Source: Spirochaetia bacterium
GTDB lineage: Bacteria > Spirochaetota > Spirochaetia > UBA9216
Assembly (NCBI GenBank): GCA_965140585.1
Contig: OZ223270.1
Span: 128,001-192,000 of the forward strand
Length of the DNA stretch: 64,000 nt
Reading direction: 5' to 3'
The notes below the pieces were generated by a model. The model was given only the letters and a program-made list of their open reading frames with translations, was not told the DNA's origin and searched no databases. Below, piece by piece: positions 768 to 19,310 of this stretch (position 1 is the stretch's first letter; each line of letters starts with the position of its first letter). Position numbers and translations under genes: made by a program.

Positions 768-2858
768 TTATTTAATTACATTTAACCACGATATATGTGG
801 TAATGTTTCACCATGTCTATAATGCCATACACCGTCTGAATAAATAAACCCATTATCTCGAAAAACATTTCTACAAGGCATGTTACGCTCTAACTCTATA
901 ATCTCACCTTTGATAGGTATAGAATCGCAAGCCATTTTTAGTTCAGTAAGCATAGCAGTTTCAATTTTGTATCCAAAAACACGACATGATAATACAAAAT
1001 AATCAATTGAATAAAATTCTTTATATTTAGTTGCTATAATACAACTTATTATACCAGCATAACCAAATTTATCATCATACTCACCTATAAGCATTATTGC
1101 TTCTTTTGAATTATACATTTCTCGTATTTCACTTTGTGATATCTTAACTCCGCGTGTATTAAATTGATTAGTCTTACTAATCAACTCTTCAACTCTTTTT
1201 AATTCTTTTAATTCAGGTCTTCGTATCTTTAGATTAATTTCCAATTTTTTAAATCTTTCTTCCATAGAAAAATCATCTTGACTAGAGGATTTGGATAAAA
1301 AATGTTCCCTTTTTGTCCGTTCCTGATACTGCCGTGTTTTATCAACTGAATTATTCGCATCCAGCATCTCATACCAGAGATTAAAACGCTCCCAAGTAAC
1401 CTCATCGTTTGGGTCAAGACAAAGCATTTCTGGATATATTTCATTAGCCATAGCTCTTTCATCACTTCTGTCATCAATAAAAACATAATCTTTTGTAGTA
1501 ATATTTAAATCTTCAACCATATTTTTAAAACCTTCTACTTTTGGCTGCCAACTAATCTGTTGATAAACAAAATCAGATTCTGATAAGCATCCGCCATTCC
1601 ATTTAACATTTTCGGGATCATTTTTTGAATTCACCGATAGAATAATCCCTCTACTTTTCAATTTAAGGAGTATATTTTGTCTCTCTGTATAATGCACCAC
1701 ATCACCCTCACCAATAACACCAGCCCAAAGAGTCTCATCTAAATCACATACCACCATTTTTTTGCCTTTTAAATAGATTGCTACAAAAATAATATCAATA
1801 TAATGATATGCAATAATTCTAGAAAAATATGCTGGGTGACTAAGTTTAGAGTAGTGTAGATAACGTCCAAGCTTAAACGAGGAGTATCCAGAAGACAACC
1901 TTAGTTCATCAACGATATATATATGTTTGAACGATTGCTCATTAAAATGTTTAATAGAATCTGATATCCAGGTATTTATTTTTACTTTTAAGTACTTGCT
2001 TACTTTTCCTAATAAGGTATTGTTTATGAATCTCTTTAAAGGGTTGTCGCCTCTAATTATATTAGCAGTATTATGAACAAAAATAGCACAATCAAATGTA
2101 TCGGCTAATAAACCAATAATCTTCTTGATATCAATCAAAGTAGTCGCTAGAATTGATTCTATTTCTTTTTTCTTAAATCTTAAAGAGCTAAGTTTTAAAA
2201 ATTGATAATAGTTAGGATCAAAAGAGTATGTTAATGGACTATAAAATACAAAATCAAATTTTTTATTTGATAATTCACTTAAAGAATTAAGTAATTCAAA
2301 ATGATTCTTTGATGTAGCATATGTGGGCCTTATAGTAACCCCTAGATCTTTTAGCTCAGGAACAGCGAAGGACACTATATCCATAAAAACACAGTCACCA
2401 ATAAATAAAACATCAATAACTTTTTCTGTCTTAGACATTATAACTGAATAAATTTCTTCGATAATTTCAAAAAATTTTTCATATTCTTTTTCATTAAGTT
2501 GATTTTTAGCTAATTTTTTAAAAATTAAAATGTCTTTTTCTAAATTATTTTTTTTATTAATTTCATAAATACTTTCATCTACAGATTTGTCATAAATAAG
2601 TTTGAGTTTTTCACCCACATACAGTGATATGTATACAGGATCCAAACTTTCAAAGTATTTTTTTAGATATATAGGGAATATCATATATTCGCGTTCGACA
2701 TACTCTTCAATCACATCATTACTAACCGCCTTTGCATGCTGCTCATTCCAGCGTGGTAGAACATTGGCATTTTGCGCGAGAAGATTTGCAATTTCTGTTT
2801 TATTATGTTGAACAAATCGTTTTATGCGAGTTGAATGTTTCATTTTTATTTTTTCCAT
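768..2858 (-). CDS. FkbH-like HAD-IIIC glyceryl transferase/phosphatase with long N-terminal extension
   Basis: VCDLDETLWAGVIGEG (HAD motif I), SKND, FIDD, KTNQFN, VLSCRV; extra ~360 aa N-terminus with SGNH-like LFIGDC. Confidence 0.85.
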   Translation of the reverse strand: MEKIKMKHSTRIKRFVQHNKTEIANLLAQNANVLPRWNEQHAKAVSNDVIEEYVEREYMIFPIYLKKYFESLDPVYISLYVGEKLKLIYDKSVDESIYEINKKNNLEKDILIFKKLAKNQLNEKEYEKFFEIIEEIYSVIMSKTEKVIDVLFIGDCVFMDIVSFAVPELKDLGVTIRPTYATSKNHFELLNSLSELSNKKFDFVFYSPLTYSFDPNYYQFLKLSSLRFKKKEIESILATTLIDIKKIIGLLADTFDCAIFVHNTANIIRGDNPLKRFINNTLLGKVSKYLKVKINTWISDSIKHFNEQSFKHIYIVDELRLSSGYSSFKLGRYLHYSKLSHPAYFSRIIAYHYIDIIFVAIYLKGKKMVVCDLDETLWAGVIGEGDVVHYTERQNILLKLKSRGIILSVNSKNDPENVKWNGGCLSESDFVYQQISWQPKVEGFKNMVEDLNITTKDYVFIDDRSDERAMANEIYPEMLCLDPNDEVTWERFNLWYEMLDANNSVDKTRQYQERTKREHFLSKSSSQDDFSMEERFKKLEINLKIRRPELKELKRVEELISKTNQFNTRGVKISQSEIREMYNSKEAIMLIGEYDDKFGYAGIISCIIATKYKEFYSIDYFVLSCRVFGYKIETAMLTELKMACDSIPIKGEIIELERNMPCRNVFRDNGFIYSDGVWHYRHGETLPHISWLNVIK

Positions 2859-3026
2859 GTATATGATATTTCATAAGTGATTCTCGCTTATCATATTCTA
2901 TTCAATTTTCAAACATGACAAGACAATGTAAACTTAGAATAATTTTCTCCAAGAAAATATACTAAGAACTCAATTTGAACAATCTCAATCGACTTTACTC
3001 TCTTATTTTGGCAGATTCAATTGCCT

Positions 3027-4154
3027 TTAAAATCTGAGAACTTCTTCTTTTTCAACTTTTTCCCATGTGTAATTTTGCGCTTGTTCCTTTGCATTTTTTG
3101 AAAAAAGATTACGCAATTCTATATTATCTACCATTTCCTTTAACGCAGAAATCCAATCATTTTTATTTAAAGGATCTAATATATATCCATCAACTCTATC
3201 TCGAACAATCCCCGCTGATCCCATCGATGTAGCTAAAACAGCTAACCCTCGAGACATAGCTTCATAGGTCACAAGAGGACTGCCTTCTTCAAGAGAGGGC
3301 ATCAAAAAGACGTCACATTCTGAATAAATTTTTCCAATATCATTTACAAAATCCAGGTATTCAACATCTTCTCTTTTAAAAAAGTGTTCACATAGTTCCT
3401 TTACATAACCATCTTCAATATCTCCGGCTATTACCAAGCTAGCATCCACACCAGATTCATTCCATGCATCAAAAAGCAAAGGAATTCCTTTTCGCAAGCA
3501 TACAAAACCGACAAATAAGAATTTTATCTTTTTTTTTCTCTTAATGAAATTCTCATTTTTTAATCGAGCACTTGACCAACCATAACTTGAATCTAATATT
3601 TTACATTCAGGTACTCCAGATTCTATTAATGATTTCCTAACATCTGGAGAAGGTGAAAATATAAAATCAGCTAATTCTTTTTCACTTCTTTCTTGCTTGA
3701 TACATTCTTCTGATATCCCATGAGTTACTGGAAGATTTAGTCGCTTGTATTCTTTCGCAAGTAATTTAGAGGCATATGCTGTATGTGTATTAATATTTTC
3801 AGATACTATAATGCATCCAATATCTTTTATTTTCCTAATAGTCTTTGTGCTTACTCCAGGCCATAAGTATACAATATCATCCTTATCCAACTTCTTCAGA
3901 AAAATATGCTCTGTAATCTTATTAAGTGTTTCAGTTTTGAAAAACTTATAGGCAATTCTTTTCAAAATTCCATTTAAAGCACTGTGATAAAATTCATGAT
4001 TTACTGAATCATCTGAAGCAGTCCCCAAAACGCTTACATTAAAAACATCGTTATTTATTCCTTCAGCGATCGATAAACACGTATACCCTGGTCCTCTTTC
4101 ACGAAAATAAAGCGGGAAGATTATCTTCAAATTCATTAAATGAGCTCCTTTCAC
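3027..4154 (-). CDS. Glycosyltransferase family 4
   Basis: FVGFVCLRKG and PSLEEGSPLVTYEAM (EX7E) motifs. Confidence 0.9.
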   Translation of the reverse strand: MKGAHLMNLKIIFPLYFRERGPGYTCLSIAEGINNDVFNVSVLGTASDDSVNHEFYHSALNGILKRIAYKFFKTETLNKITEHIFLKKLDKDDIVYLWPGVSTKTIRKIKDIGCIIVSENINTHTAYASKLLAKEYKRLNLPVTHGISEECIKQERSEKELADFIFSPSPDVRKSLIESGVPECKILDSSYGWSSARLKNENFIKRKKKIKFLFVGFVCLRKGIPLLFDAWNESGVDASLVIAGDIEDGYVKELCEHFFKREDVEYLDFVNDIGKIYSECDVFLMPSLEEGSPLVTYEAMSRGLAVLATSMGSAGIVRDRVDGYILDPLNKNDWISALKEMVDNIELRNLFSKNAKEQAQNYTWEKVEKEEVLRF

Positions 4155-4171
4155 ATTACAATTTTAATTGA

Positions 4172-5092
4172 TTAAAAAATTCTATCTTCTTTAATCTTCC
4201 AAGGTTTTTGAAAGAATAAAAAGTAAAAAAAACCAAAATCAACCTTAACAACTTTTAATATATTATAAATCAATTTCATGATCGAGAGAGGTTTGAGTGA
4301 TAAATGATAACTACAATTATAATACCAGTATCGAAATCGATGCCTAATGAGTCTTTCCTTTATTAAATTTTTAACCTCTATCTGCTTACTGAAATCTTCT
4401 TTTAATAACTTATGTATCAATATAACTCCAAATTTATAAACCTTTAATCCGCTTTTTGTAATCGAATTTTCTACAGGTCTGTAAATCGCATGACCACCTT
4501 CAGTTCTAACAACTTTTCCACCATTTAAAACTATACTTATCCGGAGACTGGAATCAGCAAAGGCTTTCATCGTTTCATCAAATCCACCATATTTTTTAAC
4601 AGTTGTAGCTCTGTACATTTCACAAGCAGGAAAAGGTGGGGCTTTCAGAAGGAATAGTTCTATGGGAGTTGACGGCGTATCTGGCCAGTTAGATTTAGAA
4701 AGGTCAGATAGTGAGCCATTTTCCTTCACATAAAGATTATCCGAACAGCAAATATCTATTACTGGCCACTTTTTAAAAGTATCTATCTGCTTTTCTATAA
4801 GATCATTTGAAATCCAATCATCAGAGTCAAGAAAAATTAGAAATTCACCTGAGGCATGGTTAATTCCATTATTTCGAGCAGAACTCACTCCAGAATTATC
4901 TTGATAAATATACTTGACATCTTCTCCATAACTTTTAACAACTTCTGCAGAACGATCTTGAGAACCATCATCAATTACGATTATTTCAATATTGTCATAA
5001 GTTTGTGTTAACACACTGTCAATGGCATCTTTTATATAACGCTCCCTATTATAACAAGGGATTATGACGCTTACTAAAACACTTTCTTCCAT
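4172..5092 (-). CDS. Glycosyltransferase family 2
   Basis: VSVIIPCYN, IDDGSQD, GVSSARN, FLDSDD. Confidence 0.92.
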   Translation of the reverse strand: MEESVLVSVIIPCYNRERYIKDAIDSVLTQTYDNIEIIVIDDGSQDRSAEVVKSYGEDVKYIYQDNSGVSSARNNGINHASGEFLIFLDSDDWISNDLIEKQIDTFKKWPVIDICCSDNLYVKENGSLSDLSKSNWPDTPSTPIELFLLKAPPFPACEMYRATTVKKYGGFDETMKAFADSSLRISIVLNGGKVVRTEGGHAIYRPVENSITKSGLKVYKFGVILIHKLLKEDFSKQIEVKNLIKERLIRHRFRYWYYNCSYHLSLKPLSIMKLIYNILKVVKVDFGFFYFLFFQKPWKIKEDRIF

Positions 5093-5312
5093 AAATAAAT
5101 CATCTCCATTTTTTTGCTTAGGCAGCCTTCAACTCTTATCTTACAATATTTTCCAAAGAATTTAATTCCTGTTTAAAAAGATTTCAACAAATTAATCCTT
5201 TTTATCGATACTTCTATTGAGGTTTATTCTATTTTTTAGGATTGTATAACTTAAAATTAGTTTTAATTGAAAAAACTTTTTATAATATCATTTTAATTAA
5301 ATTTTCAAACTT

Positions 5313-7088
5313 TTAGTATATTACCTTTATCCCACTAGGCTTTACACTCTGTCGACCACTCCAAAAATTATATTCTATAGCCCCAATATCCGGTAGACTA
5401 TCTCGTAATTTTCCTAAAGCGTCTACAGGAAAATAATTAAGAGGCAAACGATCTACTAAAGGAGAAGTATCACTTTTAGGCATTCCAATATATTTTATAT
5501 CATCAGTAGAAGTGATAATTTCAGGATCCCCTATAGATTGAGAAACATCAGGATCAGAGTCTGGCGATTTAGCTCTATAGTGAGGGCGTTTATCACTACC
5601 AATCCCCTCTCCAGTAACTGCGGAATACTGAAAATGATTATTAAGAAATACATTCCCTTCACTATTTCCAGGCAGAGTCCAATCAGGATCTACATAATCA
5701 GATTCACTAAAATCAAGCCACTCATCAAACAAACAACCAATCATAGAGGAATTAGTCCATCCGCTACCCATATAATAAAACCAACCACCAAGGAAAGTAC
5801 AGTTCCACAAAAGAACATGATCCCAGTTCCCTACCATCCCTCCAGCATCAAGAATTATCTTTTGAGTCGAATTGTCAAAGTCATAACGTCCAGGACCGCG
5901 CATCTCAATCAGAACATTTACAAATGCAATATTAGTATTACTAGTATGGTCAATATTATTATCTATATAAAAGCCTTGATAATGGCAATTTGTCGCATGA
6001 AGTCCATAGATGATAAAGTTATCTTTATCATATCTCCACATTTGGTATACATCAGCATGGTTGTATGTGTCTTCTGGATCAATGTCATCAACTGTGCAGT
6101 TGATAACACACTCAACATTCTGAAAAGCATCATTTGCTATGTGCTCAATATCACATCCACGGCAAAAATATGCTTCACGAAAAGCCATATCGACATTATA
6201 GACATAGCAGTCTGTGAACCAGCAAGGGTAATCACTTCTAGAAACACCGTCACGTCTTATTGGGCTACTATCTGTAACTGTCCGATTAAAACCGATTATA
6301 TCTACATTATCACACCATAGGTTTGAAGGACTATGCCATGTAATTCTATTTTTTGTTACTTTGTTTGAAATAGTCAAATCCTTAAAACACCCCCAAGTGG
6401 TACCATGGGCAGTACCACCAGTATCAATTATAACATTCTCTTTAGACGCTCCAGGTGCTTTTGTAAAATAAATCCACTCATCAACAGTTAATGTCGAATA
6501 AGTATAGGAAGTACCTAAAGTCCACGCCCCCTCTTCAAGATATATTTTAGCTCCATCACATTTTGATTCATTTGACAATGCCTGAACAGCATTTATTGCT
6601 GCTAAAATTGTTTCAAACGGACGCTCGGGGTTCCCAACTAACCCGGTAGAATCATTACCATTATGATTATCACACCAGACTTCATATGCCTCTAATGTCC
6701 CAGCACCATCTACTATCAATATTAAGGGGTCTAATTCTTTTACACCACCATCCTTTCCTGTAACAGTAGCGACAATCGAAATTTTCCCACTACCAGTAAA
6801 ATCTGACGGATCTAAAGTAATAAAATATTCCCAAACATCTGTTCTTGTATTCAATTCCATTGAAAATACTTTTTGTGTTGATGGACCCGCATATCCTTGC
6901 CCACTCACATCGAAGGAAACATCTAAAACTCCAGCTTTGGAAAAGGCAACAACTCCAGCGTCAAAGTTTTTTTCGATACGTTGATGCGGAACAACATCCC
7001 ATCGCGCTATTGGAATTACTGCAAAAATAAACATCGGTAAGATGAATAGATTCAAAAATATAAAAATTGATTTCCTTGATATAGCCAT
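5313..7088 (-). CDS. Secreted pectin-lyase-fold (beta-helix) protein, putative polysaccharide lyase/hydrolase
   Basis: Signal-like N-terminus; GNDSTG...PFETILAAI; Asn/Asp-rich short strands; HADVYQ; C-terminal PDIGAIEY. Confidence 0.6.
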   Translation of the reverse strand: MAISRKSIFIFLNLFILPMFIFAVIPIARWDVVPHQRIEKNFDAGVVAFSKAGVLDVSFDVSGQGYAGPSTQKVFSMELNTRTDVWEYFITLDPSDFTGSGKISIVATVTGKDGGVKELDPLILIVDGAGTLEAYEVWCDNHNGNDSTGLVGNPERPFETILAAINAVQALSNESKCDGAKIYLEEGAWTLGTSYTYSTLTVDEWIYFTKAPGASKENVIIDTGGTAHGTTWGCFKDLTISNKVTKNRITWHSPSNLWCDNVDIIGFNRTVTDSSPIRRDGVSRSDYPCWFTDCYVYNVDMAFREAYFCRGCDIEHIANDAFQNVECVINCTVDDIDPEDTYNHADVYQMWRYDKDNFIIYGLHATNCHYQGFYIDNNIDHTSNTNIAFVNVLIEMRGPGRYDFDNSTQKIILDAGGMVGNWDHVLLWNCTFLGGWFYYMGSGWTNSSMIGCLFDEWLDFSESDYVDPDWTLPGNSEGNVFLNNHFQYSAVTGEGIGSDKRPHYRAKSPDSDPDVSQSIGDPEIITSTDDIKYIGMPKSDTSPLVDRLPLNYFPVDALGKLRDSLPDIGAIEYNFWSGRQSVKPSGIKVIY

Positions 7089-7339
7089 GTCTCTCCCTCC
7101 GAATAGTATTATTTAATATCGATGACCTTGTCAAAGGAAGCAAAATATATGCCAACACTACACAAAACATCAACACTTATAACTACTTATAATTTAACAA
7201 GATACATTTTTTTCATTTTATTAATAGTTATTAAAATGGTACTCTTTTCATTTCAAAACGGTAAATAAGTTTCAAATTTGTAATTAAGGAAAATTTAACT
7301 AAATACTAAGTCTATATAATTAGAATATGATTTTAAAGT

Positions 7340-7948
7340 CTATTTATCTTTAAAAAAGTAACGAACTCGCTGCTTTACCAACTCATCTTCTAAGGAGTAG
7401 TAATCTTCCTCATCATTCCGTTTAGAAATAAGATCGTACCAAGGATATTGAAGAGTTTGATTTTCTATTTTTGAAATATAATCATTAGTTTTACCAATGA
7501 ATTTCGCAGGTACTCCGCCAACGATAGTACCACTTTCTACATTTTCATTTACGACGGCCCCTGCGGCAACAATACAGTTGTCCCCAATTGTTACATCCGG
7601 TAGAATAATCGCTCCTTGTCCAATAAAACAATTATTACCGATAATTATCGGACCAACCTTATCAAGAATCTTTCCTGTCGACACTGCAAAAACAGCAACA
7701 GAAGCATCATGTCCTATCAGACTGCAATTGGATAAACAGCAATTATTCCCAATTGAAAAATATTTTGGATCTGTAAAGATCGCACCTCTATTAATTACAG
7801 TTCCCTCACCTAAATGATACAAAAATCCTCTAGCCCTGATGTAATCTGCATATTCAGCATTGCCCGGATTATTAATCTTTAGATATAACCTAGTTAATTT
7901 GCCCTTTTTAAAAGCAAAATATTTTAATAAACTCTTAATCAAACCCAT
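7340..7948 (-). CDS. Hexapeptide-repeat (left-handed beta-helix) O-acyltransferase
   Basis: IGNNCFIGQGAIILPDVTIGDNCIVAAGAVV...GGVPAK. Confidence 0.9.
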   Translation of the reverse strand: MGLIKSLLKYFAFKKGKLTRLYLKINNPGNAEYADYIRARGFLYHLGEGTVINRGAIFTDPKYFSIGNNCCLSNCSLIGHDASVAVFAVSTGKILDKVGPIIIGNNCFIGQGAIILPDVTIGDNCIVAAGAVVNENVESGTIVGGVPAKFIGKTNDYISKIENQTLQYPWYDLISKRNDEEDYYSLEDELVKQRVRYFFKDK

Positions 7949-7989
7949 TAAAATTCTCCAATTTACAAGTATACACGCCTATACTTCAA

Positions 7990-9129
7990 CTATATAGTAA
8001 AGGTACAAATAACTTTATCTATTTTACATTTAGAATAAATCAACAACCTATCTTCAAGATATTTAATTCTTAGTAATTCAATAACTGAACAAACTGTAAA
8101 AACTATTACGATACTAAATACCGCCAACAAAGGGTAGAAATGGGAATTATACTGACTTATTACAGATAAAATTTTATTCCAAATTAATGCTCGTAATATT
8201 TCTGAATCATGTATTAAATATACGCCAAACGTAGTGGCTGAGAACAAATTTATTACTCTATTATTTTCAATCTGAATGCTTTTAAAAATTAAAAATATAG
8301 AAACAGCTATAATTGGCTTAAACACACTCTCAGCTACTAAATTTGTCAGCTCATGAATCACACTCCATGTTGCATTAAACTCTGTAAATCTTACATTAAA
8401 AAATAACTGTAAACCTAAACAAATCCAGAGAATAAGACTTACAACAAATGGTACCATTGTTGACTTTAGGTCACGTCCATAATAACGTAAATACCCCCCT
8501 AAAGAGTAGTAAAAAACTGCTTTTTGTAAAATAAAAAATGAAGTATTAAGCTTAGCCGCAAAAGTATACCAAAAAACCCAAAGAACTAAAATTATAAAAA
8601 TAAATCCTTTCCTATTCAGTCTACATAATAATGTGTTTAATAAAGGTGTTATTAAATACAATGTAAAATAAGCAGTAACAAACCACCAGGAACCGCCTAA
8701 TACAGGCATTGTACTACGAAGAATATATCGGGCGGTAAATCCTGAAACCAGCCCATTATCACCTAAATATTCAGGATAATTATATATTTTTAAAATATAT
8801 GTAAGAAAGAATATTACTAAGGAAAACACTGAGTAATATAAAACCTGTAACAGCATTCTTAATATTTTGATTGATTTTACATTACTTTTTATTTGGAAGT
8901 ACCCAGTAAGAATAAAAAAGATTGCTACACCGATCTCACCTCCTGGAATCAGAAATGATGTGAATAACACTTTAAAATCAGAACCTTCAAGCCATAATCC
9001 ACAAGTGGGCATCCCACCCCAATGAGATTGTTTAATCCCATGAACAGCATAATGACAAGCTACTATACACAACATTGAAAAGATTCTTAACAATTCAAGA
9101 TTTGAGTTACGTTTAAAACTGTTACTCAT
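7990..9129 (-). CDS. Acyltransferase family 3 (membrane O-acyltransferase)
   Basis: RNSNLELLRIFSMLCIVACH, FFILTGYF, WWFVTAY, FGVYLIH; polytopic membrane protein. Confidence 0.88.
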   Translation of the reverse strand: MSNSFKRNSNLELLRIFSMLCIVACHYAVHGIKQSHWGGMPTCGLWLEGSDFKVLFTSFLIPGGEIGVAIFFILTGYFQIKSNVKSIKILRMLLQVLYYSVFSLVIFFLTYILKIYNYPEYLGDNGLVSGFTARYILRSTMPVLGGSWWFVTAYFTLYLITPLLNTLLCRLNRKGFIFIILVLWVFWYTFAAKLNTSFFILQKAVFYYSLGGYLRYYGRDLKSTMVPFVVSLILWICLGLQLFFNVRFTEFNATWSVIHELTNLVAESVFKPIIAVSIFLIFKSIQIENNRVINLFSATTFGVYLIHDSEILRALIWNKILSVISQYNSHFYPLLAVFSIVIVFTVCSVIELLRIKYLEDRLLIYSKCKIDKVICTFTI

Positions 9130-9151: not shown

Positions 9152-11956
9152 CTATTTAACTAATACTTTCTTTTTTCGGTTTTTATATTTATAAACAAAA
9201 CGTCCAGAAACTTCCATAAAAACGGTCCATAATCGATAAGAAACCACCCCACTAATCAACCCAATCAATACCTGAACGGGCCAAATTGACGGCATTCCTA
9301 AATTTGATAATTCTGAGAGTACAAAAGAATGAACGATGTAAATAAACAATGAAGCAGAAGCTATCTCGAGGATGATTGTTTTTAGATTCTTAGGAAACCG
9401 GATTCTGTCTATCCATATAATCAATAACATGACAAGATAAAACGATATAGGCAAGTAACGATATGTCACCAATCCGGGAATATCCAATCTTGTTAATACA
9501 AACGGAATAAATAGACTAACTGTTAGAAAAATCCGCTCCTTCGTACATGTGGTGCTAGAGATCGCTACACCAAATGCAATTGGCCAAAGCCAGGGAAATG
9601 GTCCGATACTTTCACTTCCAAGACTGCCATTCCAAAATCCAGTTAAGCTCTGTAATACTCCAAGGACAATAGCCCCTAGAGATACTGTCATATCTAGCTT
9701 GAATTGACTATCTTGGTTAGGAACTCTCTGTGTTTTACCTTTTTTCCAGGAATATAGTACAATCAAAGTAACGACGGAAAGGATTAATATATTCGCTGTC
9801 AAAATATCAAGAAACCAATACCCCCAACGGCCATTTCCTGGTTTTTGAAACATTGTGTTAAGAAGAAAAAAGTCAGGTAGCCAAAAACGATGATTTTGAA
9901 TAGAGCATAATGCATTCCATAAAAATACAGGAAATCCATAGCTAAAAATAAATCTAAAAATTCCGTTAAGATTTCCTTTCTGGTAAATTGTAGGACGTAA
10001 AAACTTCCCAAAACTGAGCCCTGATAATACAAATAGAACCGAGGCATCTGGCAGATGATTAAAACCTAAATGACCCATTATAACAAATGTGATAGCAATA
10101 GCACGAAACAAGCTTGTCATATCAATATAAGTCCAGACTTTTGATTTTTGTTTAGTCTTTTTTTTACCGAGCAACACATTAAGGGGCATTATTTCCCACC
10201 TATCCGGCAAATAGCCTATATGTTTTTCAATGAATAATGAAACCCTAATGTACGATAATGAATCACCTCCTAAAGCAACAAACGATGACTCTATAGTATC
10301 TATATGCCTGCCTAATACTGATTCTATCTTTTTTATAATGACTATATCTGATGGATCAATATCCTCAAGGCGATATAAATCTTCAGAAGGCTTACTACAA
10401 CTTGAATCAATATCCATTAAGGCTAGAGCCTTACGATCCGTTTTGCCATTTAATGTAAGAGGATATTCATCCACCTGCATAAAGAGATTTGGAATCATAT
10501 AAGTAGGCAAGATATTAGATAAGTCTTTCTTTATCGCTTCAACATTTATATCTCTACCATCTTTAGCAATAATATATGCAGCAAGCTGCTTGTTACATTT
10601 GGAGAGCTCCTTAGCCACAACCACAGCGTTATGAATTGAAGGATTATTCATTAATGCATATTCAATATCTCCTAGCTCAATCCTATAGCCCCTTATCTTG
10701 ACTTGAAAATCAGATCTTCCAATATACTCAATATTTCCATCTTCATGATAACGGCAAACATCTCCGGTTTTATACAACCGGTCGGTATCAAGCCCCCATT
10801 CAGAAGGACATGTTAGAAACCTTTCAGAGGTTAACTCATCCCTGTTTAAGTATCCTAAAGACAGCCCGATACCGCCGATATATAATTCACCTGTCTCGCC
10901 AATAGTTACCGGATTAAGCTGATCATCAAGTATTATCATTACTGTATTATCTATTGGCTTCCCAATAAGAGGTTGCTGGTTACACCCTCTCAACCTGAAA
11001 GCTGAAGACCATACTGTTGTTTCTGTAGGACCATAAAAGTTCCAGACTTCATCACAATTTTCAGTAAGTTTATTAGCAATATCAGCTGACACGGCTTCTC
11101 CACCGCATACAATTTTTTTCAAAGAAGAATTTTTCCAACCATAGTCAAAAAACATTTGGAAAGATGTAGAGGTAGCCTGCATCATAGTAACCGAATTCTT
11201 ATCAATATATTCGATAAGCCGCCCGATATCTCTGGCCATTTTGGTAGTCGCCAATACTATTGTGGCTCCAACGATAAAAGATAGATAAAGTTCAGGAACA
11301 GACATATCAAATGAGATAGTTGCAAGAGCAAGGAATTTATCGTCTTCAGTAATTCCAGGCTTCTTCTTCATTGATAATAAAAGGTTTAGAAGAGCTCTGT
11401 GTTGAATCTGAACGCCTTTTGGGGTCCCGGTTGATCCTGAAGTGTATATTATATAAGCTAAAAAATCACCCTCGATCTTTATTGCAGGCGGTAAAGCCTC
11501 TTCTTTATCTATTTGCGCCTTCTCATCTTCGATAACCATAACATCTACATCAGCATTATCGAAAAGTTTTTCAACTAATGCTTTTTGAGATATTATAGAA
11601 GCAAGTCCAGAGTCATCAACCATATAAGAAAGTCTGGATTTTGGAAAATGAGGATCCATAGGAATATAACACGCACCTGTTTTTAAAATACCTAGCAGAA
11701 CAGGTAACAGATCAATATTTCTTTCCAAGCATACACCAACAATAGTTCCATTTTTAATATCTTTTTTAATAAAGTAGTTTGCATATTTGTTGGAAAGAAT
11801 ATCAAGTTCTCTATATGAAATTTTATGGTCTTCAAAGATTACTGCAGTATTATTATTTTCTTTACTTACATCTTTAAAAATTTCAAGGAAATTTGAGTGC
11901 TTCCCTAAATCCACAGTAGTATTATTTATTTCTTTTATTATGCTCTCCAGCATCAC
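9152..11956 (-). CDS. NRPS-like fusion: adenylation domain + peptidyl carrier domain + AT3-like membrane acyltransferase
   Basis: YTSGSTGTPKG, FYGPTE, YKTGD, GRSDFQVKIRGYRIELG, NGKTDR; carrier motif LGGDSL; C-terminal TM region LFRAIAITFVIMGH, LFVLSG, YWFLD, SLFIYIVH. Confidence 0.88.
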   Translation of the reverse strand: MMLESIIKEINNTTVDLGKHSNFLEIFKDVSKENNNTAVIFEDHKISYRELDILSNKYANYFIKKDIKNGTIVGVCLERNIDLLPVLLGILKTGACYIPMDPHFPKSRLSYMVDDSGLASIISQKALVEKLFDNADVDVMVIEDEKAQIDKEEALPPAIKIEGDFLAYIIYTSGSTGTPKGVQIQHRALLNLLLSMKKKPGITEDDKFLALATISFDMSVPELYLSFIVGATIVLATTKMARDIGRLIEYIDKNSVTMMQATSTSFQMFFDYGWKNSSLKKIVCGGEAVSADIANKLTENCDEVWNFYGPTETTVWSSAFRLRGCNQQPLIGKPIDNTVMIILDDQLNPVTIGETGELYIGGIGLSLGYLNRDELTSERFLTCPSEWGLDTDRLYKTGDVCRYHEDGNIEYIGRSDFQVKIRGYRIELGDIEYALMNNPSIHNAVVVAKELSKCNKQLAAYIIAKDGRDINVEAIKKDLSNILPTYMIPNLFMQVDEYPLTLNGKTDRKALALMDIDSSCSKPSEDLYRLEDIDPSDIVIIKKIESVLGRHIDTIESSFVALGGDSLSYIRVSLFIEKHIGYLPDRWEIMPLNVLLGKKKTKQKSKVWTYIDMTSLFRAIAITFVIMGHLGFNHLPDASVLFVLSGLSFGKFLRPTIYQKGNLNGIFRFIFSYGFPVFLWNALCSIQNHRFWLPDFFLLNTMFQKPGNGRWGYWFLDILTANILILSVVTLIVLYSWKKGKTQRVPNQDSQFKLDMTVSLGAIVLGVLQSLTGFWNGSLGSESIGPFPWLWPIAFGVAISSTTCTKERIFLTVSLFIPFVLTRLDIPGLVTYRYLPISFYLVMLLIIWIDRIRFPKNLKTIILEIASASLFIYIVHSFVLSELSNLGMPSIWPVQVLIGLISGVVSYRLWTVFMEVSGRFVYKYKNRKKKVLVK

Positions 11957-12012: not shown

Positions 12013-13221
12013 TTACTCGTTAAAAAGCATTTCTAGAACAGCTCCTTCCTTAACTGTATCATGCTTCAACATTGTCAATTCTCTACCTTTATTTGCCATA
12101 GTCTCCAGCTCATCCAAAGGGGCTTCGAGGGCTTCAAGCATAGCATCTACAAGCTTCTCACTGTTTCCGGAAGGAACTAACCATCCATTTTCTTTGTGCA
12201 CAACCAGCTCGGGAATGCCAGCTATGTATGTTGAAATTACTGGTCGTCCGACAGCAAAAGACTCCATGATAACCATTGGAAGCCCTTCTGCAAAACTAGG
12301 CAAGACCATTGCCCTGCTTTCTATAAGAAATTCTTTTACTTTATCTTCAGATACATACCCTGAGATCTCTACATTATCTGCTATATTAAAAGCCTTTATC
12401 TTTCTCTCAATAGTCGATCGTAATTCTCCATCTCCAACAAAAATCAACTTTGCATCAGGAGCTTTAGCTAACAGTTCATGAAAAGCATCTAACAACACCA
12501 ACTGCCCCTTCTGCGGAGCTAAACGACCAATACAGACAAATGTCTTGCTGTCTACCATAGGTTCTTTCCTTGAAAAAAAGTCTTCGCCTACAGTACACCC
12601 CACAGTATGAATCTTATGCCAGTCTTCCAGCCTGCACCACCTTTTTAGTTGAGCTGAACAAAAATCTGTTATTGCAACAGTAAATTTAGAATCCTCAATC
12701 TTACCAGACAAGTCATATCCTAAAGGAGAATCAAACTCATCAGGCCCATGAACTGTAAAACTATAGCTGGGCCCGCCAAGATGCCTTATAATTCTGGTAA
12801 TAGCAGCAGTGTTTCTTCCAAAGTGCGAATGAATATGTTTAACCTGTTTTTGTTCAGCATGGTTAAGAAAAGCTACAGCTTCTAACAAGTAAACAAAATG
12901 CCTCAGTAAAGACTTCTCACTGTATTTATGCATCGACAGAATAAGTCGTATTGATTTAGAGAATTTGGATGGCCTTACCAATAACCAGATAATTGAAGAA
13001 AAAATCTTTCTAAAGATTGAATCTTTGAAGAAATAGAACGTTTTTTCTTCTTCTTTAAAGTCAATATCATTTACCAATGGCGCATCAGATCTCCTCAATG
13101 CCATTCGTACAACTTCATGTCCTCGTCTTTCTATTTCCAATAACTCTCTTCGTATAAAAGTATGACTGACGGATGGATATTTAGTTGTTAAATATGCAAT
13201 CTTTACACGTTCCCCTAACAT
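12013..13221 (-). CDS. Glycosyltransferase family 4 (WcaL-like)
   Basis: YPSVSHTFIRRE, HIHSHFG, IGRLAPQKG, PSFAEGLPMVIME. Confidence 0.9.
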   Translation of the reverse strand: MLGERVKIAYLTTKYPSVSHTFIRRELLEIERRGHEVVRMALRRSDAPLVNDIDFKEEEKTFYFFKDSIFRKIFSSIIWLLVRPSKFSKSIRLILSMHKYSEKSLLRHFVYLLEAVAFLNHAEQKQVKHIHSHFGRNTAAITRIIRHLGGPSYSFTVHGPDEFDSPLGYDLSGKIEDSKFTVAITDFCSAQLKRWCRLEDWHKIHTVGCTVGEDFFSRKEPMVDSKTFVCIGRLAPQKGQLVLLDAFHELLAKAPDAKLIFVGDGELRSTIERKIKAFNIADNVEISGYVSEDKVKEFLIESRAMVLPSFAEGLPMVIMESFAVGRPVISTYIAGIPELVVHKENGWLVPSGNSEKLVDAMLEALEAPLDELETMANKGRELTMLKHDTVKEGAVLEMLFNE

Positions 13222-13282
13222 TTCTACTCCTCATTAAAACAACTAAGATTTTTATACTGACGGGTTTAATAATTTCAGTGAA

Positions 13283-14269
13283 CTATTTATGCTCTATGAT
13301 TTTATATTTTTTACCTAAAACTCGTCTCCATAATAGCAAAACGATACCAAAGGTTTGAGGTACTGGTGTTAGAATACTAAATGATGAATAAATAAGAGAC
13401 GAGCGTATATTTTTTATTTCTTTCTTTTTTCTTAAGAATATTCTGATGAATCTATAAATATAAATCAGATATAAGGTGAAAAACCATAATGATCCCAAAA
13501 GACCTAAGATAAAAACTGAAATTGGAAAAAAGACTCCCCAGACAAGAGCCCGAACGACCTGCGGAAAATAATAACCTTTACCGTCTTTATAATGCGTAAG
13601 AAAACCCTGGGCATAAGCGTGACCTGCCCTAATGCTTCTTCTCCACCACTGACTGAATTTTTTCATGGCTGCATCATGGTATGTCATATCATGATCATAC
13701 CTATAAATTTTCCAATCTAACTTCCTTAATCTGTAACATAAATCAGGCTCTTCACCAGCAATAATAAACGGATTAAACCCATCTACCTCTTTAAAACTCT
13801 TTACCTTGACAAGAAAATCTCCACCACATGCTTCTGTTTCACCGATTGGAGTATTCCATTCAATATCACAAAGAAGATTATATACCGAGGCCATTGGAAA
13901 TTGCTCTTTTCTCTGTCCGGCAACAATAGCATATTCTGTGTTATCATCTAAGAACTTCATAGCAATATTTAGCCATTCGGGATTCAGGAGACAATCCCCG
14001 TCTATAAATTGTACATATTCCAGATTTTCATTTTTCTCAATGAGAGAAAAGAAGCCCGCATTCCTGGCTCGCGCAGCGCTAAAAGGGATACTCATATCAA
14101 GTTCTATATAATCAATATCTTTACTCTTACAAAAGCCTAAGCTATCATCTGTAGATCCAGAATCAACATATACAATTTTATTTGAATGATCTAAAATACT
14201 GATAATACAACTCTTTAATCTTTCACCTTCATTTCTTCCAATTACAACTATTCCTAAATTATTAAGCAT
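13283..14269 (-). CDS. Glycosyltransferase family 2 with C-terminal TM helices
   Basis: VVIGRNEGERL, VDSGSTD, FIDGD, AGEEPDLC. Confidence 0.9.
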   Translation of the reverse strand: MLNNLGIVVIGRNEGERLKSCIISILDHSNKIVYVDSGSTDDSLGFCKSKDIDYIELDMSIPFSAARARNAGFFSLIEKNENLEYVQFIDGDCLLNPEWLNIAMKFLDDNTEYAIVAGQRKEQFPMASVYNLLCDIEWNTPIGETEACGGDFLVKVKSFKEVDGFNPFIIAGEEPDLCYRLRKLDWKIYRYDHDMTYHDAAMKKFSQWWRRSIRAGHAYAQGFLTHYKDGKGYYFPQVVRALVWGVFFPISVFILGLLGSLWFFTLYLIYIYRFIRIFLRKKKEIKNIRSSLIYSSFSILTPVPQTFGIVLLLWRRVLGKKYKIIEHK

Positions 14270-14294
14270 GCTTGTTCTTCGTCAGCTCCTTTTT

Positions 14295-15641
14295 TCAGGG
14301 ATTCCGGGATACGTTGACATAATATTGCGAGACTAAAGCCCCAGCACAAAAAACATAGACTGGATTAAACATTGAATTCATTAGTGAATCTATCATAAAA
14401 AAAGTAACTAATATGCATAGTAAAAAAAGATAAAGTCTTCGTTTTTCGGAATTAATATCTAAAGGGACTTCTTTATTTTTATAGTACTTCAGAATAAAAT
14501 ATGCACCGCTCCCGAGAGTAAAAAAAACGCTAAACAACCCCGCAATGCCATAGGTGCTGAATATTCCAAGCCAAAGGGAGTCTAAAATAGAGAAAAGCTC
14601 TTTACCAGTAACCGGATCAACAGGATATGCCCGCCGATAGCCAGCCCATCCGAACCAAAATCGTTGAAGAGTTTTTTCAGCAAATAAATCCTCCTGCCAC
14701 ATCCTAAAGAGTAATGAGGCAACTCTATTAGAGTCAAATATAATGCTAAAAAGCTGTCCAAACCTTCTGACAGGTATAATATTAAATATTCTAGTAATAA
14801 AATAAATAGGGATACCGCTCATTATTACACGAAGCCATTTAATAGCATTGTGACTATTTCGTTTGTATATATAAATTAAGAATAAACCTAAAGTCAAGAA
14901 AATCCAACCATTGGCTGATTTACATAAAATTGTTAGTACAATAAAGAGTACAGATAGAAATGACAACTTTAGCTTACCTAACTTTTGAATATACCCCATT
15001 TTCCAGTTACTGTATGAAAAGATAGTTACCATAGTCATCCAAAATGAAACCATTAACCCATGCTGCATAAAAACTATAGGTCTCCATCCTCCATAGCGCA
15101 TATGCTGAATCAATTTATGCTGAAGCCAGCCATATAATAACTCATGAAAAAAAGGCCCCTTTGATAATTCAACAATAATAAAAGGAATATATATCACTCC
15201 TCCTATAATAACACCTCGTACAAGTCTGAACAGGGATTCATCATCATTAATAAACTTACGGCCTGCCCAATATAGAGCTCCCCATGTAAGCAGATTACTC
15301 AAACTTTCTGAGACACCGCCATATAAACTCAAGCCATTTGAAAGTGCGGTTATAACAGGAAGGAGTGAGCACCATAGCAACATCGGGATGTCTACCGGTC
15401 TAAACTTATCAATAATTTTGGTATTTGGACTAATCTTTACACTTCCAATAAATAAAGAAACGCCGATTGCAATATTTTTGTTATACTGAGGAAATCCAGG
15501 CAGATCCAAATAAGCCATTGGTAAAAATAAAACACCGCCGATCAGTACAATCAATACAGCCTTTGTAGCATCAACGACTCTAAAAAGAATTACAGAGAAT
15601 AGTATCCACCCATATATCATTACAGTTGCCAAGACTGTCAT
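14295..15641 (-). CDS. Wzy/O-antigen-ligase-like polysaccharide polymerase
   Basis: Polytopic membrane protein with RYGGWRP, CKSANG, RFWFGWAG, DSLW; adjacent to flippase. Confidence 0.72.
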   Translation of the reverse strand: MTVLATVMIYGWILFSVILFRVVDATKAVLIVLIGGVLFLPMAYLDLPGFPQYNKNIAIGVSLFIGSVKISPNTKIIDKFRPVDIPMLLWCSLLPVITALSNGLSLYGGVSESLSNLLTWGALYWAGRKFINDDESLFRLVRGVIIGGVIYIPFIIVELSKGPFFHELLYGWLQHKLIQHMRYGGWRPIVFMQHGLMVSFWMTMVTIFSYSNWKMGYIQKLGKLKLSFLSVLFIVLTILCKSANGWIFLTLGLFLIYIYKRNSHNAIKWLRVIMSGIPIYFITRIFNIIPVRRFGQLFSIIFDSNRVASLLFRMWQEDLFAEKTLQRFWFGWAGYRRAYPVDPVTGKELFSILDSLWLGIFSTYGIAGLFSVFFTLGSGAYFILKYYKNKEVPLDINSEKRRLYLFLLCILVTFFMIDSLMNSMFNPVYVFCAGALVSQYYVNVSRNP

Positions 15642-15675
15642 ATATTTTAATTTCCCCGCCTTAAGATTGCTAAGT

Positions 15676-17031
15676 TCAGATCAACCCTCCTGGGAAACCT
15701 AAATTAAAAACCATTCTTAGAGACAAAAATATCGCAATCAAAAGAAATAGAAAAAGTGTCGCGACCAAGTCCTGTTTAATTAAAGAAAATTTCTCCCGAA
15801 CTAAAGCAATGTTAATAACTATATAAACAGCAATATCATTAAAAACTATACCCAGTATAGTTCCAATATCGCCAAATAAATGAAACAATAATGGTACAAT
15901 TGAAATCATATATAAAAATTTTAGCAAATTTCCCAATGTCAAATATTGTGGTTTTCCAATCGACATTAGAACACGGTCTATAGTAACAATCAAAATTAAT
16001 GGCCACATTCCTACAGCAAGAAGTGGCAAAATCCATGCCGCTGCTGCATACCTGTCGTCATAAAGAAATAAAATTATGAAATCACCAAAACAGCTGAAGA
16101 TTGATACAAAAACAGCCATAGCAAGTAAAATTAGTCTTCTTGGTTTTGCAATTTTTGCTCTTAAATCATCTGCAGGCAGATGATTAAACTTGGAAATAAG
16201 TGGGTAGATGACCGTATTGCTCAATTTTTCCAATACCTTTTTTGGCAATTCGGAAAAGTTTAATGCAATATTATAGACCCCAAACATGGTAATAGAGAAA
16301 AGTTTACCTAGTAATAATCTGTCAGACTGTGCTGCTAAAAACATAACAGCTGTAGACATCCAAATCCACATCCCAAAATGAAGCAGTTCGGAAAGGGAGG
16401 TTTTTTCCAGCCTGAATCTATTCTTTATTCCCTCGTTTATCTTATGACTCCATAAAGTTTTTACTATTTCAGAAACCAATCCACGAATTATCAGAGACCA
16501 AACACTCCCGGTAAGATACGCAACTATTACCATTATTATCAAACTAACTAATTGAACACCTAATTCCAGTATTACGAGTTTTTTTTGATTTAACTCTTTA
16601 TTCAATAAAAACAATGATGTGGAAGAAAACCCACTAACCAAAGAGTTAATTGCAATAACGGGTAACAATTGCAGTAAAATGGGCTGTTCATAAACTCTGG
16701 AAACAGGATATGCACAAATCACCAATGCAATAGCAAGGATAACACCTCTCAAAACTTGCAAAGTCCAGGCAGTATTTATAAAATCTTCTTCATGTACTCT
16801 ATCACTTCGAATAACACAAGGGCCAAGCCCTATATCTGAAAACAAGGCGAGTCCAAGCTGAAAAACTGTACCAATGGCTACAATACCGAATAATTCCGGT
16901 GCCAGCAACCTTGTTAATACGACATTTCCAAGAAGACGTAGAAATTGAGAAGACCCGAACCCAAAAACTATAAAAAGTGAAGATTCTATCGCTTTTTTCT
17001 TTAATATTTTATCAGATTCATCATTAACCAA
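15676..17031 (-). CDS. wzx: Wzx oligosaccharide flippase
   Basis: LTRLLAPELFG, FSDIGLG, DRLLLGK...GVY; many TM helices. Confidence 0.85.
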   Translation of the reverse strand: MVNDESDKILKKKAIESSLFIVFGFGSSQFLRLLGNVVLTRLLAPELFGIVAIGTVFQLGLALFSDIGLGPCVIRSDRVHEEDFINTAWTLQVLRGVILAIALVICAYPVSRVYEQPILLQLLPVIAINSLVSGFSSTSLFLLNKELNQKKLVILELGVQLVSLIIMVIVAYLTGSVWSLIIRGLVSEIVKTLWSHKINEGIKNRFRLEKTSLSELLHFGMWIWMSTAVMFLAAQSDRLLLGKLFSITMFGVYNIALNFSELPKKVLEKLSNTVIYPLISKFNHLPADDLRAKIAKPRRLILLAMAVFVSIFSCFGDFIILFLYDDRYAAAAWILPLLAVGMWPLILIVTIDRVLMSIGKPQYLTLGNLLKFLYMISIVPLLFHLFGDIGTILGIVFNDIAVYIVINIALVREKFSLIKQDLVATLFLFLLIAIFLSLRMVFNLGFPGGLI

Positions 17032-17386
17032 AAATTTTTTCCTTTGCTAATATCAGTCATTGAGTATCAGGCTGAAATATTATTCACAAATAAACTACAT
17101 CAATTATAAAATTAAGAGGAATCACTCCTATGCCCTCCTTTAAAGGTAAACAGATAGACCATTTTAATTTTTGATAAGTTAACCCGATATTATAATACAT
17201 TCAAGAACGTATCATAGCCTTCTTACATCTATCAAAAATAAATAATTATACACTGTTCAAAAAACGTTGGCTCAGTGTTTGATTCACTTAAACTATATTA
17301 TCATTTTTATTGTGGTATTTATAAAAAAAGGTAATTCTTATTTTTATCCACTTGCGCTTCTATTGACTATTTATATTTAAATACTT

Positions 17387-17857
17387 TTAGTTCCTAATAA
17401 ATTCACTGATATAACTAAGAAGACTTTCAGACGCAAAATCGCCTATATATCCTGGATATGCTATAATATTATCATCAAGCTGACTTTTAAGCTCATCCGA
17501 GGAAAAGGCAACTTTAATATAACCCTTTAAAAAAAAACTTTTTGCTGTTGCCAATTGATGATCATTCCTGTGCTCATCATATGCAACCTCTCTGGGCATA
17601 ACTAAAATTGGTTTTTTCTTCTGCAAAGCAGAAATTATAGTACCCATTCCTGCATGCGACACAATTAAATCAGTCCTATTAAACAACTCTCGCATTTCTT
17701 GAGGATCAAAAAAAGATTTATATTTCATATTCATTGGCTTGTATTTGGAATTTCCAATCTGTGCGATGATTTCAAGCTCCTGACTTTCTCCCCATTCATC
17801 TACAGCTTTAACTAATCGATCAAAAGGAAGCTGAGTCCCTACCGTTAAAAATATCAT
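17387..17857 (-). CDS. PssE/Cps14G-like glycosyltransferase subunit (Alg13-like)
   Basis: MIFLTVGTQLPFDRL, SHAGMGT, EHRNDHQ. Confidence 0.9.
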   Translation of the reverse strand: MIFLTVGTQLPFDRLVKAVDEWGESQELEIIAQIGNSKYKPMNMKYKSFFDPQEMRELFNRTDLIVSHAGMGTIISALQKKKPILVMPREVAYDEHRNDHQLATAKSFFLKGYIKVAFSSDELKSQLDDNIIAYPGYIGDFASESLLSYISEFIRN

Positions 17858-18300
17858 ATGACAGCCCCATAATATAATACCTTTTCACCATCTGATAGAA
17901 TTTCCCATTGAGTTAGAACCTTATCAGCTAAATGTACCGCTATTTTACCAGAGATCGATAAGGTTTCTGCATTTGCGATACTGTCAACCCACAACGTCTT
18001 TGCTCCAAAAATCTTTCCCCATAAGATACAAATAATACCTGGTGCAGCACCTGTTGAAACAACTATATCCGGCCTAACTTTTTTTACAATCTTAAAAGCA
18101 TCTATAAATGTTTTTACTAACTTTAGTTTAGTATTAAAATTCGAATCCGTTATCAAGAAAAATGGCCCACTAATTTCATCAGCCATTTTTAAACTTGTTG
18201 AGCACCAACTAACCTTTGTGTCCTCAAAAGACGGGAGAAGGCGCAATAACTGAATCCAGTGCCCACCACCAGAACTAATTGCTAAAAGTTTCTTTTTCAA
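17854..18300 (-). CDS. PssD/Cps14F-like glycosyltransferase subunit (Alg14-like)
   Basis: SSGGGHWIQL, VSTGAAPG, LTQW; 4-nt overlap with the pssE-like gene. Confidence 0.9.
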   Translation of the reverse strand: MKKKLLAISSGGGHWIQLLRLLPSFEDTKVSWCSTSLKMADEISGPFFLITDSNFNTKLKLVKTFIDAFKIVKKVRPDIVVSTGAAPGIICILWGKIFGAKTLWVDSIANAETLSISGKIAVHLADKVLTQWEILSDGEKVLYYGAVI

Positions 18301-19151: not shown

Positions 19152-19310
19152 AGGTTGATTACACCCTAAACCTTTAACTTTTTCTGTATTATACGAAGAG
19201 TCGCTTAAACATACAATAGCGAGTATATAATTAAGATTTAACTACCGCTGCCGAAACAAGCTGGTTGACCTTTGTTCTAATATTTTATTTTAACATTAAT
19301 TTCAATTAAA

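Follow-up and report, generated by a model that had tools for sequence, protein, structure and literature searches.

Can one polypeptide activate an amino acid, hold it as a thioester and pass it across the membrane to a surface polysaccharide? The question is raised by a gene within a 64,000-nucleotide stretch of a Spirochaetia bacterium genome (assembly GCA_965140585.1, contig OZ223270.1, positions 128,001 to 192,000; hereafter the window, in whose own numbering coordinates are given). The gene lies at 9152-11956 on the reverse strand and encodes an adenylation domain, a carrier (thiolation) domain and a membrane domain resembling the acyltransferase-3 (AT3) family, in that order (A-T-AT3). 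The original prediction, made from the letters of the DNA, had described it as a fused activation-carrier-transfer enzyme that probably places glycine on exopolysaccharide (EPS) through an AT3 domain. Following computational analysis, we regard it as an evenly balanced proposition that the protein is a single-chain, self-loading transmembrane aminoacyl transferase, which decorates the EPS of the surrounding Wzx/Wzy locus.

The gene consists of one open reading frame (ORF), of 934 codons when read from a GTG or 933 amino acids when read from the ATG one codon on. The purine-rich, ribosome-binding-like GAAGAAGG is located just 5' of the ORF, and 22 nt separate its stop codon from the start of the next gene. 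The order of the three parts in the protein (termed P0001 in the family searches) was confirmed. As had been stated originally, there is no condensation or thioesterase domain; in Pfam scans (E <= 0.1) no condensation, thioesterase, reductase or epimerase domain was detected in the protein. The features of the gene are as follows.

9152..11956, reverse strand: whole ORF of the A-T-AT3 protein, 934 amino acids, stop codon included (ORF reading)
10421..11872, reverse strand: adenylation domain of the nonribosomal peptide synthetase (NRPS) amino-acid type, residues 29-512 (PF00501, PF13193, TIGR01733, PDB matches)
11009..11308, reverse strand: pocket stretch with nine of the ten specificity residues, D217, M218, P221, Q260, V283, G285, F307, V315 and W316 (alignments)
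10442-10444, reverse strand: tenth specificity residue, K505 (alignments)
10157..10351, reverse strand: carrier (thiolation) domain, residues 536-600 (weak PP-binding match, conserved Asp-Ser, model helices)
9155..10126, reverse strand: AT3-like membrane acyltransferase domain, residues 611-934 (PF01757 match, relatives, model, Foldseek)

In the translation, a short lysine-rich linker precedes the membrane domain and a basic tail follows it at the C-terminus. Together with the positive-inside rule, these features would place both ends of the membrane domain in the cytoplasm.

The adenylation domain was recognized with high scores. The AMP-binding model PF00501 covers residues 29-370 (E 6.7e-80, 269 bits versus a cut-off of 29.9) and AMP-binding_C (PF13193) covers residues 431-505, while the NCBIfam model TIGR01733, "amino acid adenylation domain", was passed with 406.7 bits (cut-off 317.4). 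The closest PDB matches of the domain were NRPS adenylation domains. Its translation includes YTSGSTGTPKG, FDMS, NFYGPTE, YKTGD, GRSDFQVKIRGYRIELGDIE and NGKTDRK. The core motifs A3, A5, A7, A8 and A10 are intact, GRSDFQVKIRG and NGKTDRK (with the catalytic lysine K505) among them, and the domain is thus complete, as predicted.

The residue expected to contact the alpha-amino group of the substrate, D217 (equivalent to Asp235), aligns with the FD motif of solved adenylation domains. The specificity code DMPQVGFVWK was obtained both from HMMER alignments to these domains and from a MAFFT alignment, and it is identical to the code that had been read by hand. The canonical glycine code, which we take to be DILQLG[LMV][IV]WK, is also visible in the 4ZXH and 5U89 alignments. 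When 203 adenylation-domain segments, derived from 119 NRPS matches of a whole-protein search, were ranked by similarity to the window domain, the 23 top-scoring segments all carried DILQ[LI]G..WK. The best match of the pocket stretch among solved structures was AB3403 (4ZXH/4ZXI; 88.7 bits, code DILQLGVVW), followed by the first module of DhbF (5U89; 78.8 bits, code DILQLGLIW). The AB3403 crystal contains glycine and AMP, and the first module of DhbF is a glycine module (PMC10510592). D235, Q278, G301, V/I330 and W331 are common to these glycine modules and the window protein. The modules differ from it in that their A-T pair feeds condensation domains, whereas that of the window protein precedes a membrane acyltransferase, with no condensation or thioesterase domain. 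Judged from the pocket and its neighbours, the likely substrate is glycine or an amino acid of comparably small size.

The two remaining domains were analyzed in the context of a family alignment of 101 sequences, on which an AlphaFold2 model of residues 525-934 was also built (mean pLDDT 93.4, pTM 0.91). In the model, a compact bundle of helices leads into some ten membrane helices. The bundle corresponds to the carrier domain (helices at model residues 11-24, 42-56 and 68-72; block pLDDT 89-96). The GGDSL carrier of the original prediction was recovered as the motif LGGDSLS, in which Ser566 (10259-10261, reverse strand) is the putative phosphopantetheine serine; D565 and S566 are conserved in all 93 aligned relatives. 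A family-specific LPxxWE motif (residues 583-588) is located just past carrier helix 2, where P584 and W587 are each found in 93 of 94 sequences. Of 29 relatives with a PP-binding match, 22 passed the Pfam cut-off, including P0009 and P0011 (27.2 bits). The conservation and the modelled fold argue that the carrier domain is real, despite the weak Pfam score of P0001 itself.

In the membrane domain, the signature R..AI..V...H, noticed originally, corresponds to R618-x10-H629 (R618 at 10103-10105 and H629 at 10070-10072, reverse strand). R618, G646 and G796 are each present in 101 of the 101 aligned sequences, and H629 in 98. In AT3 proteins an R-X10-H motif is absolutely conserved and essential, and simulations put the thioester of acetyl-coenzyme A (CoA) beside its histidine (PMC9833829). 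The Acyl_transf_3 match (PF01757) of P0001 is weak, though it extends over profile positions 6-319 of 326. Among 34 relatives scanned with Pfam (out of 150 listed membrane-domain matches, P0009 and P0011 included), 23 showed the same model, always over positions ~6-320 of 326, and 10 of these exceeded its cut-off with 32.0 to 50.1 bits; the other 11 had no match at E <= 0.01. The nearest ESM Atlas cluster (score 0.96, 213 of 256 features in common) is a family of 379 amino acids; 80% of its members are assigned PP-binding and 66% Acyl_transf_3. The assignment to AT3 is made because of this transitive evidence via relatives, on which, together with the model, the membrane domain is taken to be a divergent AT3. 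When the family alignment was compared by hhalign with one sequence, the other canonical AT3 of the window, the R/H and SG motifs lined up, but the match was poor (E 0.093, probability 0.6) and was not used as evidence of homology. The fused domain was also considered as a recent duplicate of the stand-alone AT3 encoded by the adjoining gene, and this was rejected, as the two showed no similarity (BLASTP E 1.7).

The distribution of this architecture was examined with HMMER, by scanning 1.84 billion representative proteins for relatives of residues 590-934. In total, 313 representatives were related to the membrane domain at E <= 0.001, 81 of them at <= 1e-10 and 28 at <= 1e-30; a word-indexed search with the same domain returned the window's own protein only. 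An architecture census, of the kind proposed with the original prediction, was performed on 149 listed representatives of the 313 (window protein excluded), using the three pieces of P0001 as phmmer probes. An adenylation domain, a carrier and the membrane domain were present together in 99 of the 149. Carrier and membrane domain alone were found in 24, most of them 350-590 amino acids long, although in four of these (800-864 amino acids) Pfam detected a divergent AMP-binding domain. Two others combined adenylation and membrane domains, and in both the carrier missed by phmmer was recovered by Pfam. The remaining 24 showed the membrane domain only and comprised 12 fragments truncated at the N-terminus, one C-terminally truncated sequence, two members of polyketide synthase (PKS) type, with ketosynthase-acyltransferase (KS-AT) modules and in one case a Pfam carrier, and nine apparently complete stand-alone proteins. 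Larger forms carry a condensation domain, or a sulfotransferase and a partial condensation domain, in front. The carrier directly precedes the membrane domain in 123 of the 149. Judged from these architectures, the carrier-AT3 pair is the constant core of a large unannotated family, in which the loading domain varies. The fused architecture of the original prediction therefore stands, and the fusion is not a singular one.

The variation of the loading domain is reflected in the adenylation codes of the family, as read from a MAFFT alignment. The dominant code, DPRHFGFQAK, occurred in 39 representatives; we know of no assigned substrate for this code, which places Arg and His in the pocket. DVRHFALLAK was found in seven, and about 25 codes ([CST]YS.TAM.RK and kin), in the forms of 800-900 amino acids, lacked the Asp that binds the alpha-amino group. 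Two members carried DLTK[IV]GHVGK, presumably an Asp-like code, and four (P0009, P0011, P0182 and P0190) the canonical glycine code. DMPQVGFVWK was found once, in the window protein. The closest relatives of its membrane domain were P0122, a carrier-AT3 protein without further domains (45% identity), and P0123, of the DVRHFALLAK type (44%). Since the loaders of these two are unlike that of the window protein, the adenylation domain appears to have been exchanged in evolution, while carrier and AT3 were kept as a unit. By predicted function, the window gene would thus be a rare glycine-like member of a widespread, unannotated carrier-fed branch of AT3. Six related loci in genome contigs were considered as further members and rejected: they lacked the membrane and carrier domains (tblastn E >= 0.49) and contained ordinary NRPS adenylation domains. 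Three annotated relatives, which bear only the label "AMP-binding protein" and belong to the non-amino-acid branch rather than the glycine-like one, are located as follows.

L007, 8660-11104: relative in Paracoccus zhejiangensis
L008, 8537-11194: relative in Sinorhizobium meliloti
L009, 8603-11092: relative in Mycolicibacterium rufum

In the proposed mechanism, the adenylation domain would activate an alpha-amino acid of small size, with glycine the most probable, and form a thioester with the phosphopantetheine arm on Ser566; this loading step is suggested by sequence features and knowledge of the families. The carrier, on its short lysine-rich linker, would be positioned where the AT3 pore opens to the cytoplasm, and the aminoacyl-pantetheine arm would enter in place of the pantetheine of acetyl-CoA. 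In AT3 proteins, the N-terminus and helices 9-10 have been reported to frame the entrance of the pore (PMC9833829), and the carrier is attached on that N-terminal side. Arg618 and His629 of helix 1 would then mediate aminoacyl transfer on the outer side of the membrane, where a lipid-linked repeat unit or nascent polymer would accept the group on a hydroxyl or an amine. The glycan would thereby gain a substituent whose amino group stays free. By chemical reasoning, activation at the carboxyl group should lead to an O-aminoacyl ester or, where the acceptor is an amino sugar, to an N-aminoacyl amide; an amide to a sugar carboxyl should not be formed. We infer the EPS acceptor, the type of bond and the hand-off from carrier to AT3. 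Complex prediction with the carrier and AT3 domains as separate chains gave 0.23 and 0.19 versus a mark of 0.32; these values, obtained without controls, speak neither for nor against binding.

The acceptor is suggested by the position of the gene. It is part of a tightly packed, same-strand Wzx/Wzy EPS operon, with gaps of 22 nt and 56 nt to the flanking glycosyltransferase and acyltransferase genes, and the originally described setting among glycosyltransferases was borne out by same-strand GT4, GT2, Wzx and priming phosphotransferase neighbours. The features of the cluster are listed below.

12013..21663, reverse strand: upstream EPS-cluster genes (GT4, GT2, a 448-amino-acid membrane ORF, Wzx-type flippase, Alg13/Alg14-like pair, GT2, priming sugar-phosphate transferase, PilZ, VpsT/CsgD-like regulator)
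2..9129, reverse strand: downstream EPS-cluster genes (stand-alone AT3, hexapeptide acetyltransferase, 591-amino-acid ORF, GT2, GT4, FkbH-like, GT2)
7990-9129, reverse strand: stand-alone AT3 (72.3 bits), directly downstream of the A-T-AT3 gene
7340-7948, reverse strand: hexapeptide-repeat acetyltransferase
5313-7088, reverse strand: 591-amino-acid ORF with a hydrophobic N-terminus, inside the EPS operon
768-2858, reverse strand: FkbH-like HAD-IIIC protein of 696 amino acids (FkbH model, HAD-IIIC, Atlas)
2-676, reverse strand: GT2 running off the window edge
21715-22929, forward strand: divergent chain-length-determinant-like gene
22929-24476, forward strand: divergent Wza-like Poly_export/SLBB gene

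The 448-amino-acid membrane ORF is a possible polymerase. No small acyl carrier protein (ACP) ORF was seen in positions 1-9200, and the sole carrier domain found in the locus is that of the A-T-AT3 protein.

Several observations weigh against the reading of the protein as a self-loading AT3 that acts on EPS. Neither the carrier nor the membrane domain of P0001 reaches its own Pfam cut-off (PP-binding PF00550, residues 540-581, 16.6 versus 20.8 bits; PF01757, residues 616-905, 15.6 versus 31 bits). In a Foldseek search of the PDB, the model matched only GWT1 and human HGSNAT at a probability >= 0.9 (0.90-0.97), and weakly so (E 0.03-0.1, none <= 0.001; TM 0.35-0.39); no bacterial AT3 structure was among the matches. 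GWT1 and HGSNAT have been grouped with AT3 in one "TmAT" superfamily (PMC12423673), and the weak match points towards AT3 in this sense. Another motif of AT3 proteins, RXXR where helix 3 ends on the cytoplasmic side, has been tied to binding of the CoA 3'-phosphate (PMC9833829) and is not clearly preserved: before the conserved P676, the protein P0001 carries R668 but a serine, S672, and basic residues occupy position 668 in 47 of 101 family sequences and position 672 in 73 of 100. Loss of RXXR would fit a donor that lacks the CoA 3'-phosphate. Acyl-CoA has, moreover, been favoured over carrier proteins as the AT3 donor (PMC9558356). No SGNH/DltD-type partner adjoins the gene, and no phosphopantetheinyl transferase was seen among the window ORFs scanned. 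Finally, the three annotated relatives are located outside polysaccharide loci, with neighbours that encode a porin and a gamma-glutamyltransferase, housekeeping functions or, in the third case, an iron ABC transporter, and the family is therefore not tied to EPS.

The same fused machine could act on another small substrate (alanine, serine, beta-alanine or sarcosine), to which we attach a distinct if minor probability, and the evidence on the code is here also unfavourable to glycine. The window code equals the canonical one at five of the ten positions, with the other four hydrophobic, and departs from it at 236 (M), 239 (P), 299 (V) and 322 (F). A further solved match of the pocket stretch, 8www (70.0 bits, code DMPQLGWVW; 501 residues, titled only "Carrier domain-containing protein"), has DMPQ in common with the window protein. 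In a pocket-focused database search (120 rows), D[ML]PQ.G[FM]VW appeared as a recurrent variant distinct from DILQLG, and for its members no substrate was found in the sources consulted. DMPQLGMVW was present in 14 rows and the exact DMPQVGFVW in five, including the window; the other four adenylation domains belong to one synthetase with condensation, adenylation, thiolation and thioesterase domains and to three soluble A-T proteins whose C-terminal halves are SGNH/GDSL-like. In addition, the adenylation domain is clearly exchangeable within the A-T-AT3 family. Conversely, by overall similarity the domain falls among the glycine-code domains, as all 23 of its best-ranked segments are of that type, and it retains Q278, G301 and W331 together with large residues at positions 322 and 330; such pocket residues leave little room for a side chain. 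The glycine specificity of the original prediction is thus made likely by the nearest domains, while the code itself is only half canonical. As a separate observation, the three soluble proteins (P0326, P0331 and P0339) carry the code DMPQVGFVW together with a fused C-terminal GDS(T) SGNH/GDSL-like half, which is duplicated in P0339, and they represent another way to couple a glycine-like A-T pair directly to an acyl-transfer domain.

The aminoacyl acceptor might be other than the EPS of the locus, namely lipopolysaccharide, a membrane lipid or a periplasmic glucan, with the operon position incidental. AT3 proteins act on many acceptors (PMC9558356), and the neighbourhoods of the three annotated relatives would be in keeping with this possibility, which we consider improbable in view of the short gaps to the same-strand neighbours and of the placement of all three inspected relatives in the non-amino-acid branch. 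Another arrangement would make the A-T part the DltA and DltC of a second membrane system, with the AT3-like domain serving mainly as a membrane tether. An MBOAT and DltD-like pair is encoded at 26364-28733: the MBOAT scored 97.5 bits with PF03062 and 148 bits with the DltB model, the 313-amino-acid ORF that follows it matched DltD near threshold (21.7 versus 22.7 bits), and among the ORFs scanned no further adenylation or carrier domain was found in the island that holds both systems. The DltB score is, however, well under the equivalog cut-off of 375, the pair is on the opposite strand and separated from the gene by 14 kb that include a transposase fragment, and MBOAT pairs with SGNH-like proteins are usually acetyl-CoA-dependent O-acetylation systems (PMC12148441). 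The fusion of carrier and AT3 with an invariant R/H pair in at least 123 of the 149 listed representatives argues for a catalytic AT3, and this arrangement is accordingly very improbable. The original contrast of AT3 with MBOAT thus holds for the membrane domain itself, although an MBOAT is found in the same island. Least probable of all is a membrane domain that forms a transporter-like or regulatory module, as has been debated for the AT3 domain of VanT, with the aminoacyl thioester released in some other way. The sub-threshold PF01757 score would allow it; the invariant R-X10-H, G646 and G796 fit a conserved active site, and no condensation, thioesterase or reductase domain for release is present in the protein.

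Among known systems, the closest analogue in its working appears to be the Dlt pathway, whereas the closest homologues of the membrane domain appear to be the AT3 O-acyltransferases. In Dlt, an ATP-dependent adenylation enzyme loads a carrier, and a polytopic membrane acyltransferase passes the aminoacyl group outward to a surface polymer; carrier-borne D-Ala proceeds via the MBOAT DltB to DltX and DltD and then to teichoic acid (PMC12148441). The window protein is proposed to follow the same DltA-DltC-DltB logic in one polypeptide on an unrelated AT3 fold. The DltA model matches its adenylation domain at 301 bits, although the equivalog cut-offs were not reached (301 versus 476 and 273 versus 560 bits). 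Dlt comprises five separate proteins, uses D-Ala and needs DltX and the SGNH protein DltD, whereas the window protein is fused, carries a glycine-like code and has no adjoining SGNH partner. DltB is, moreover, an MBOAT, with a fold structurally distinct from AT3/TmAT (PMC12423673), while the membrane module of the window protein is AT3-like. Because the membrane fold differs and the parts are fused, the window protein is not a member of Dlt.

In AlmEFG of Vibrio cholerae, a glycine-activating adenylation enzyme and a carrier feed a membrane-associated acyltransferase that places glycine on lipid A. The system consists of three proteins, of which AlmG is classed with the secondary acyltransferases of lipid A and is not known as an AT3 protein, and the acceptor is lipid A rather than EPS; the window protein is likened to it at the level of this general description. 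With the AT3 O-acyltransferases (OafA/OafB and OatA; stand-alone Oac, IcaC and GumF/G) the window protein shares the R-X10-H motif on helix 1, the Pfam family (by transitive evidence) and, in the model, a core of ~10 helices, and its predicted role would likewise be the acylation of an envelope carbohydrate. The described members use an acyl-CoA donor, and many hand the acyl group to a fused C-terminal SGNH domain via a loop tyrosine (PMC9558356, PMC9833829, PMC12148441). In contrast, the predicted donor of the window protein is an N-terminally fused, self-loaded carrier, there is no SGNH domain and RXXR is not clearly kept. Literature searches of the available papers yielded no description of a carrier- or adenylation-fused AT3. 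In the accessible portions of two AT3 overviews (PMC9558356 and PMC12423673), the terms "adenylation" and "AMP-binding" do not occur, and "carrier protein" is found in that of PMC9558356 only where ACP is set aside as a donor and in the abbreviation list.

Two routes of envelope-polymer acylation have been described: MBOAT with SGNH, supplied by CoA or, in Dlt, by a carrier protein, and AT3(-SGNH) with acetyl-CoA (PMC12148441). A carrier-fed AT3, if true, would fill the missing combination of donor and membrane enzyme and would widen AT3 chemistry from acetyl and succinyl groups to amino acids. A single protein could then hang amino acids, or other acyl groups not borne by CoA, on extracytoplasmic glycans or lipids; it would offer a compact, one-gene handle on EPS charge, with a bearing on the biofilm matrix and on resistance to cationic peptides, and hundreds of genes that today bear only the label "AMP-binding protein" would acquire a function. 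In its broadest form, the proposal is that AT3 includes a large branch fed by a fused carrier with swappable loaders (glycine-like, Asp-like, DPRHFGFQAK, fatty-acyl-type and PKS KS-AT), in which the window gene is the glycine type and makes a cationic, glycyl-esterified biofilm polysaccharide under cyclic di-GMP (c-di-GMP) control. This broader view is tentative, with the balance somewhat against it.

The control by c-di-GMP is hinted at by two genes at the head of the cluster, at 20508-21663 on the reverse strand, which encode a PilZ-domain protein and a VpsT/CsgD-like LuxR regulator. Within the operon, the ORF at 5313-7088 had no Pfam or NCBIfam match, and its description as an exported polysaccharide-modifying enzyme is a guess. 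FkbH enzymes load glyceryl units onto carrier proteins. The C-terminal half of the protein encoded at 768-2858 passed the FkbH-domain model (187 versus 146.65 bits) and fell with Atlas FkbH_N/HAD-IIIC clusters (0.94-0.97); it was considered as an alternative loader of the carrier domain, an idea that was set aside.

The polysaccharide island, approximately positions 1-30000, has a G+C content of 0.26-0.40, versus 0.40-0.49 for the rest of the window, in which the part at 30000-64000 carries housekeeping genes (gnd, pgl, zwf, pyrG, pstCAB-phoU-phoBR, cysQ, sbcCD and polB). No Rfam RNA family was found in the window. A DUF772 transposase fragment is located at 24566-25180, and this together with the low G+C content suggests that the island was horizontally acquired. 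A convergent canonical AT3 (91.9 bits) completes a second acylation set at 26364-29892, and the island thus contains four membrane acyltransferases: the fused AT3, the stand-alone AT3, the MBOAT and the canonical AT3. Immediately upstream of the MBOAT gene, at 25905-26216 on the forward strand, a DUF6951 protein of 103 amino acids (107.7 bits) is encoded.

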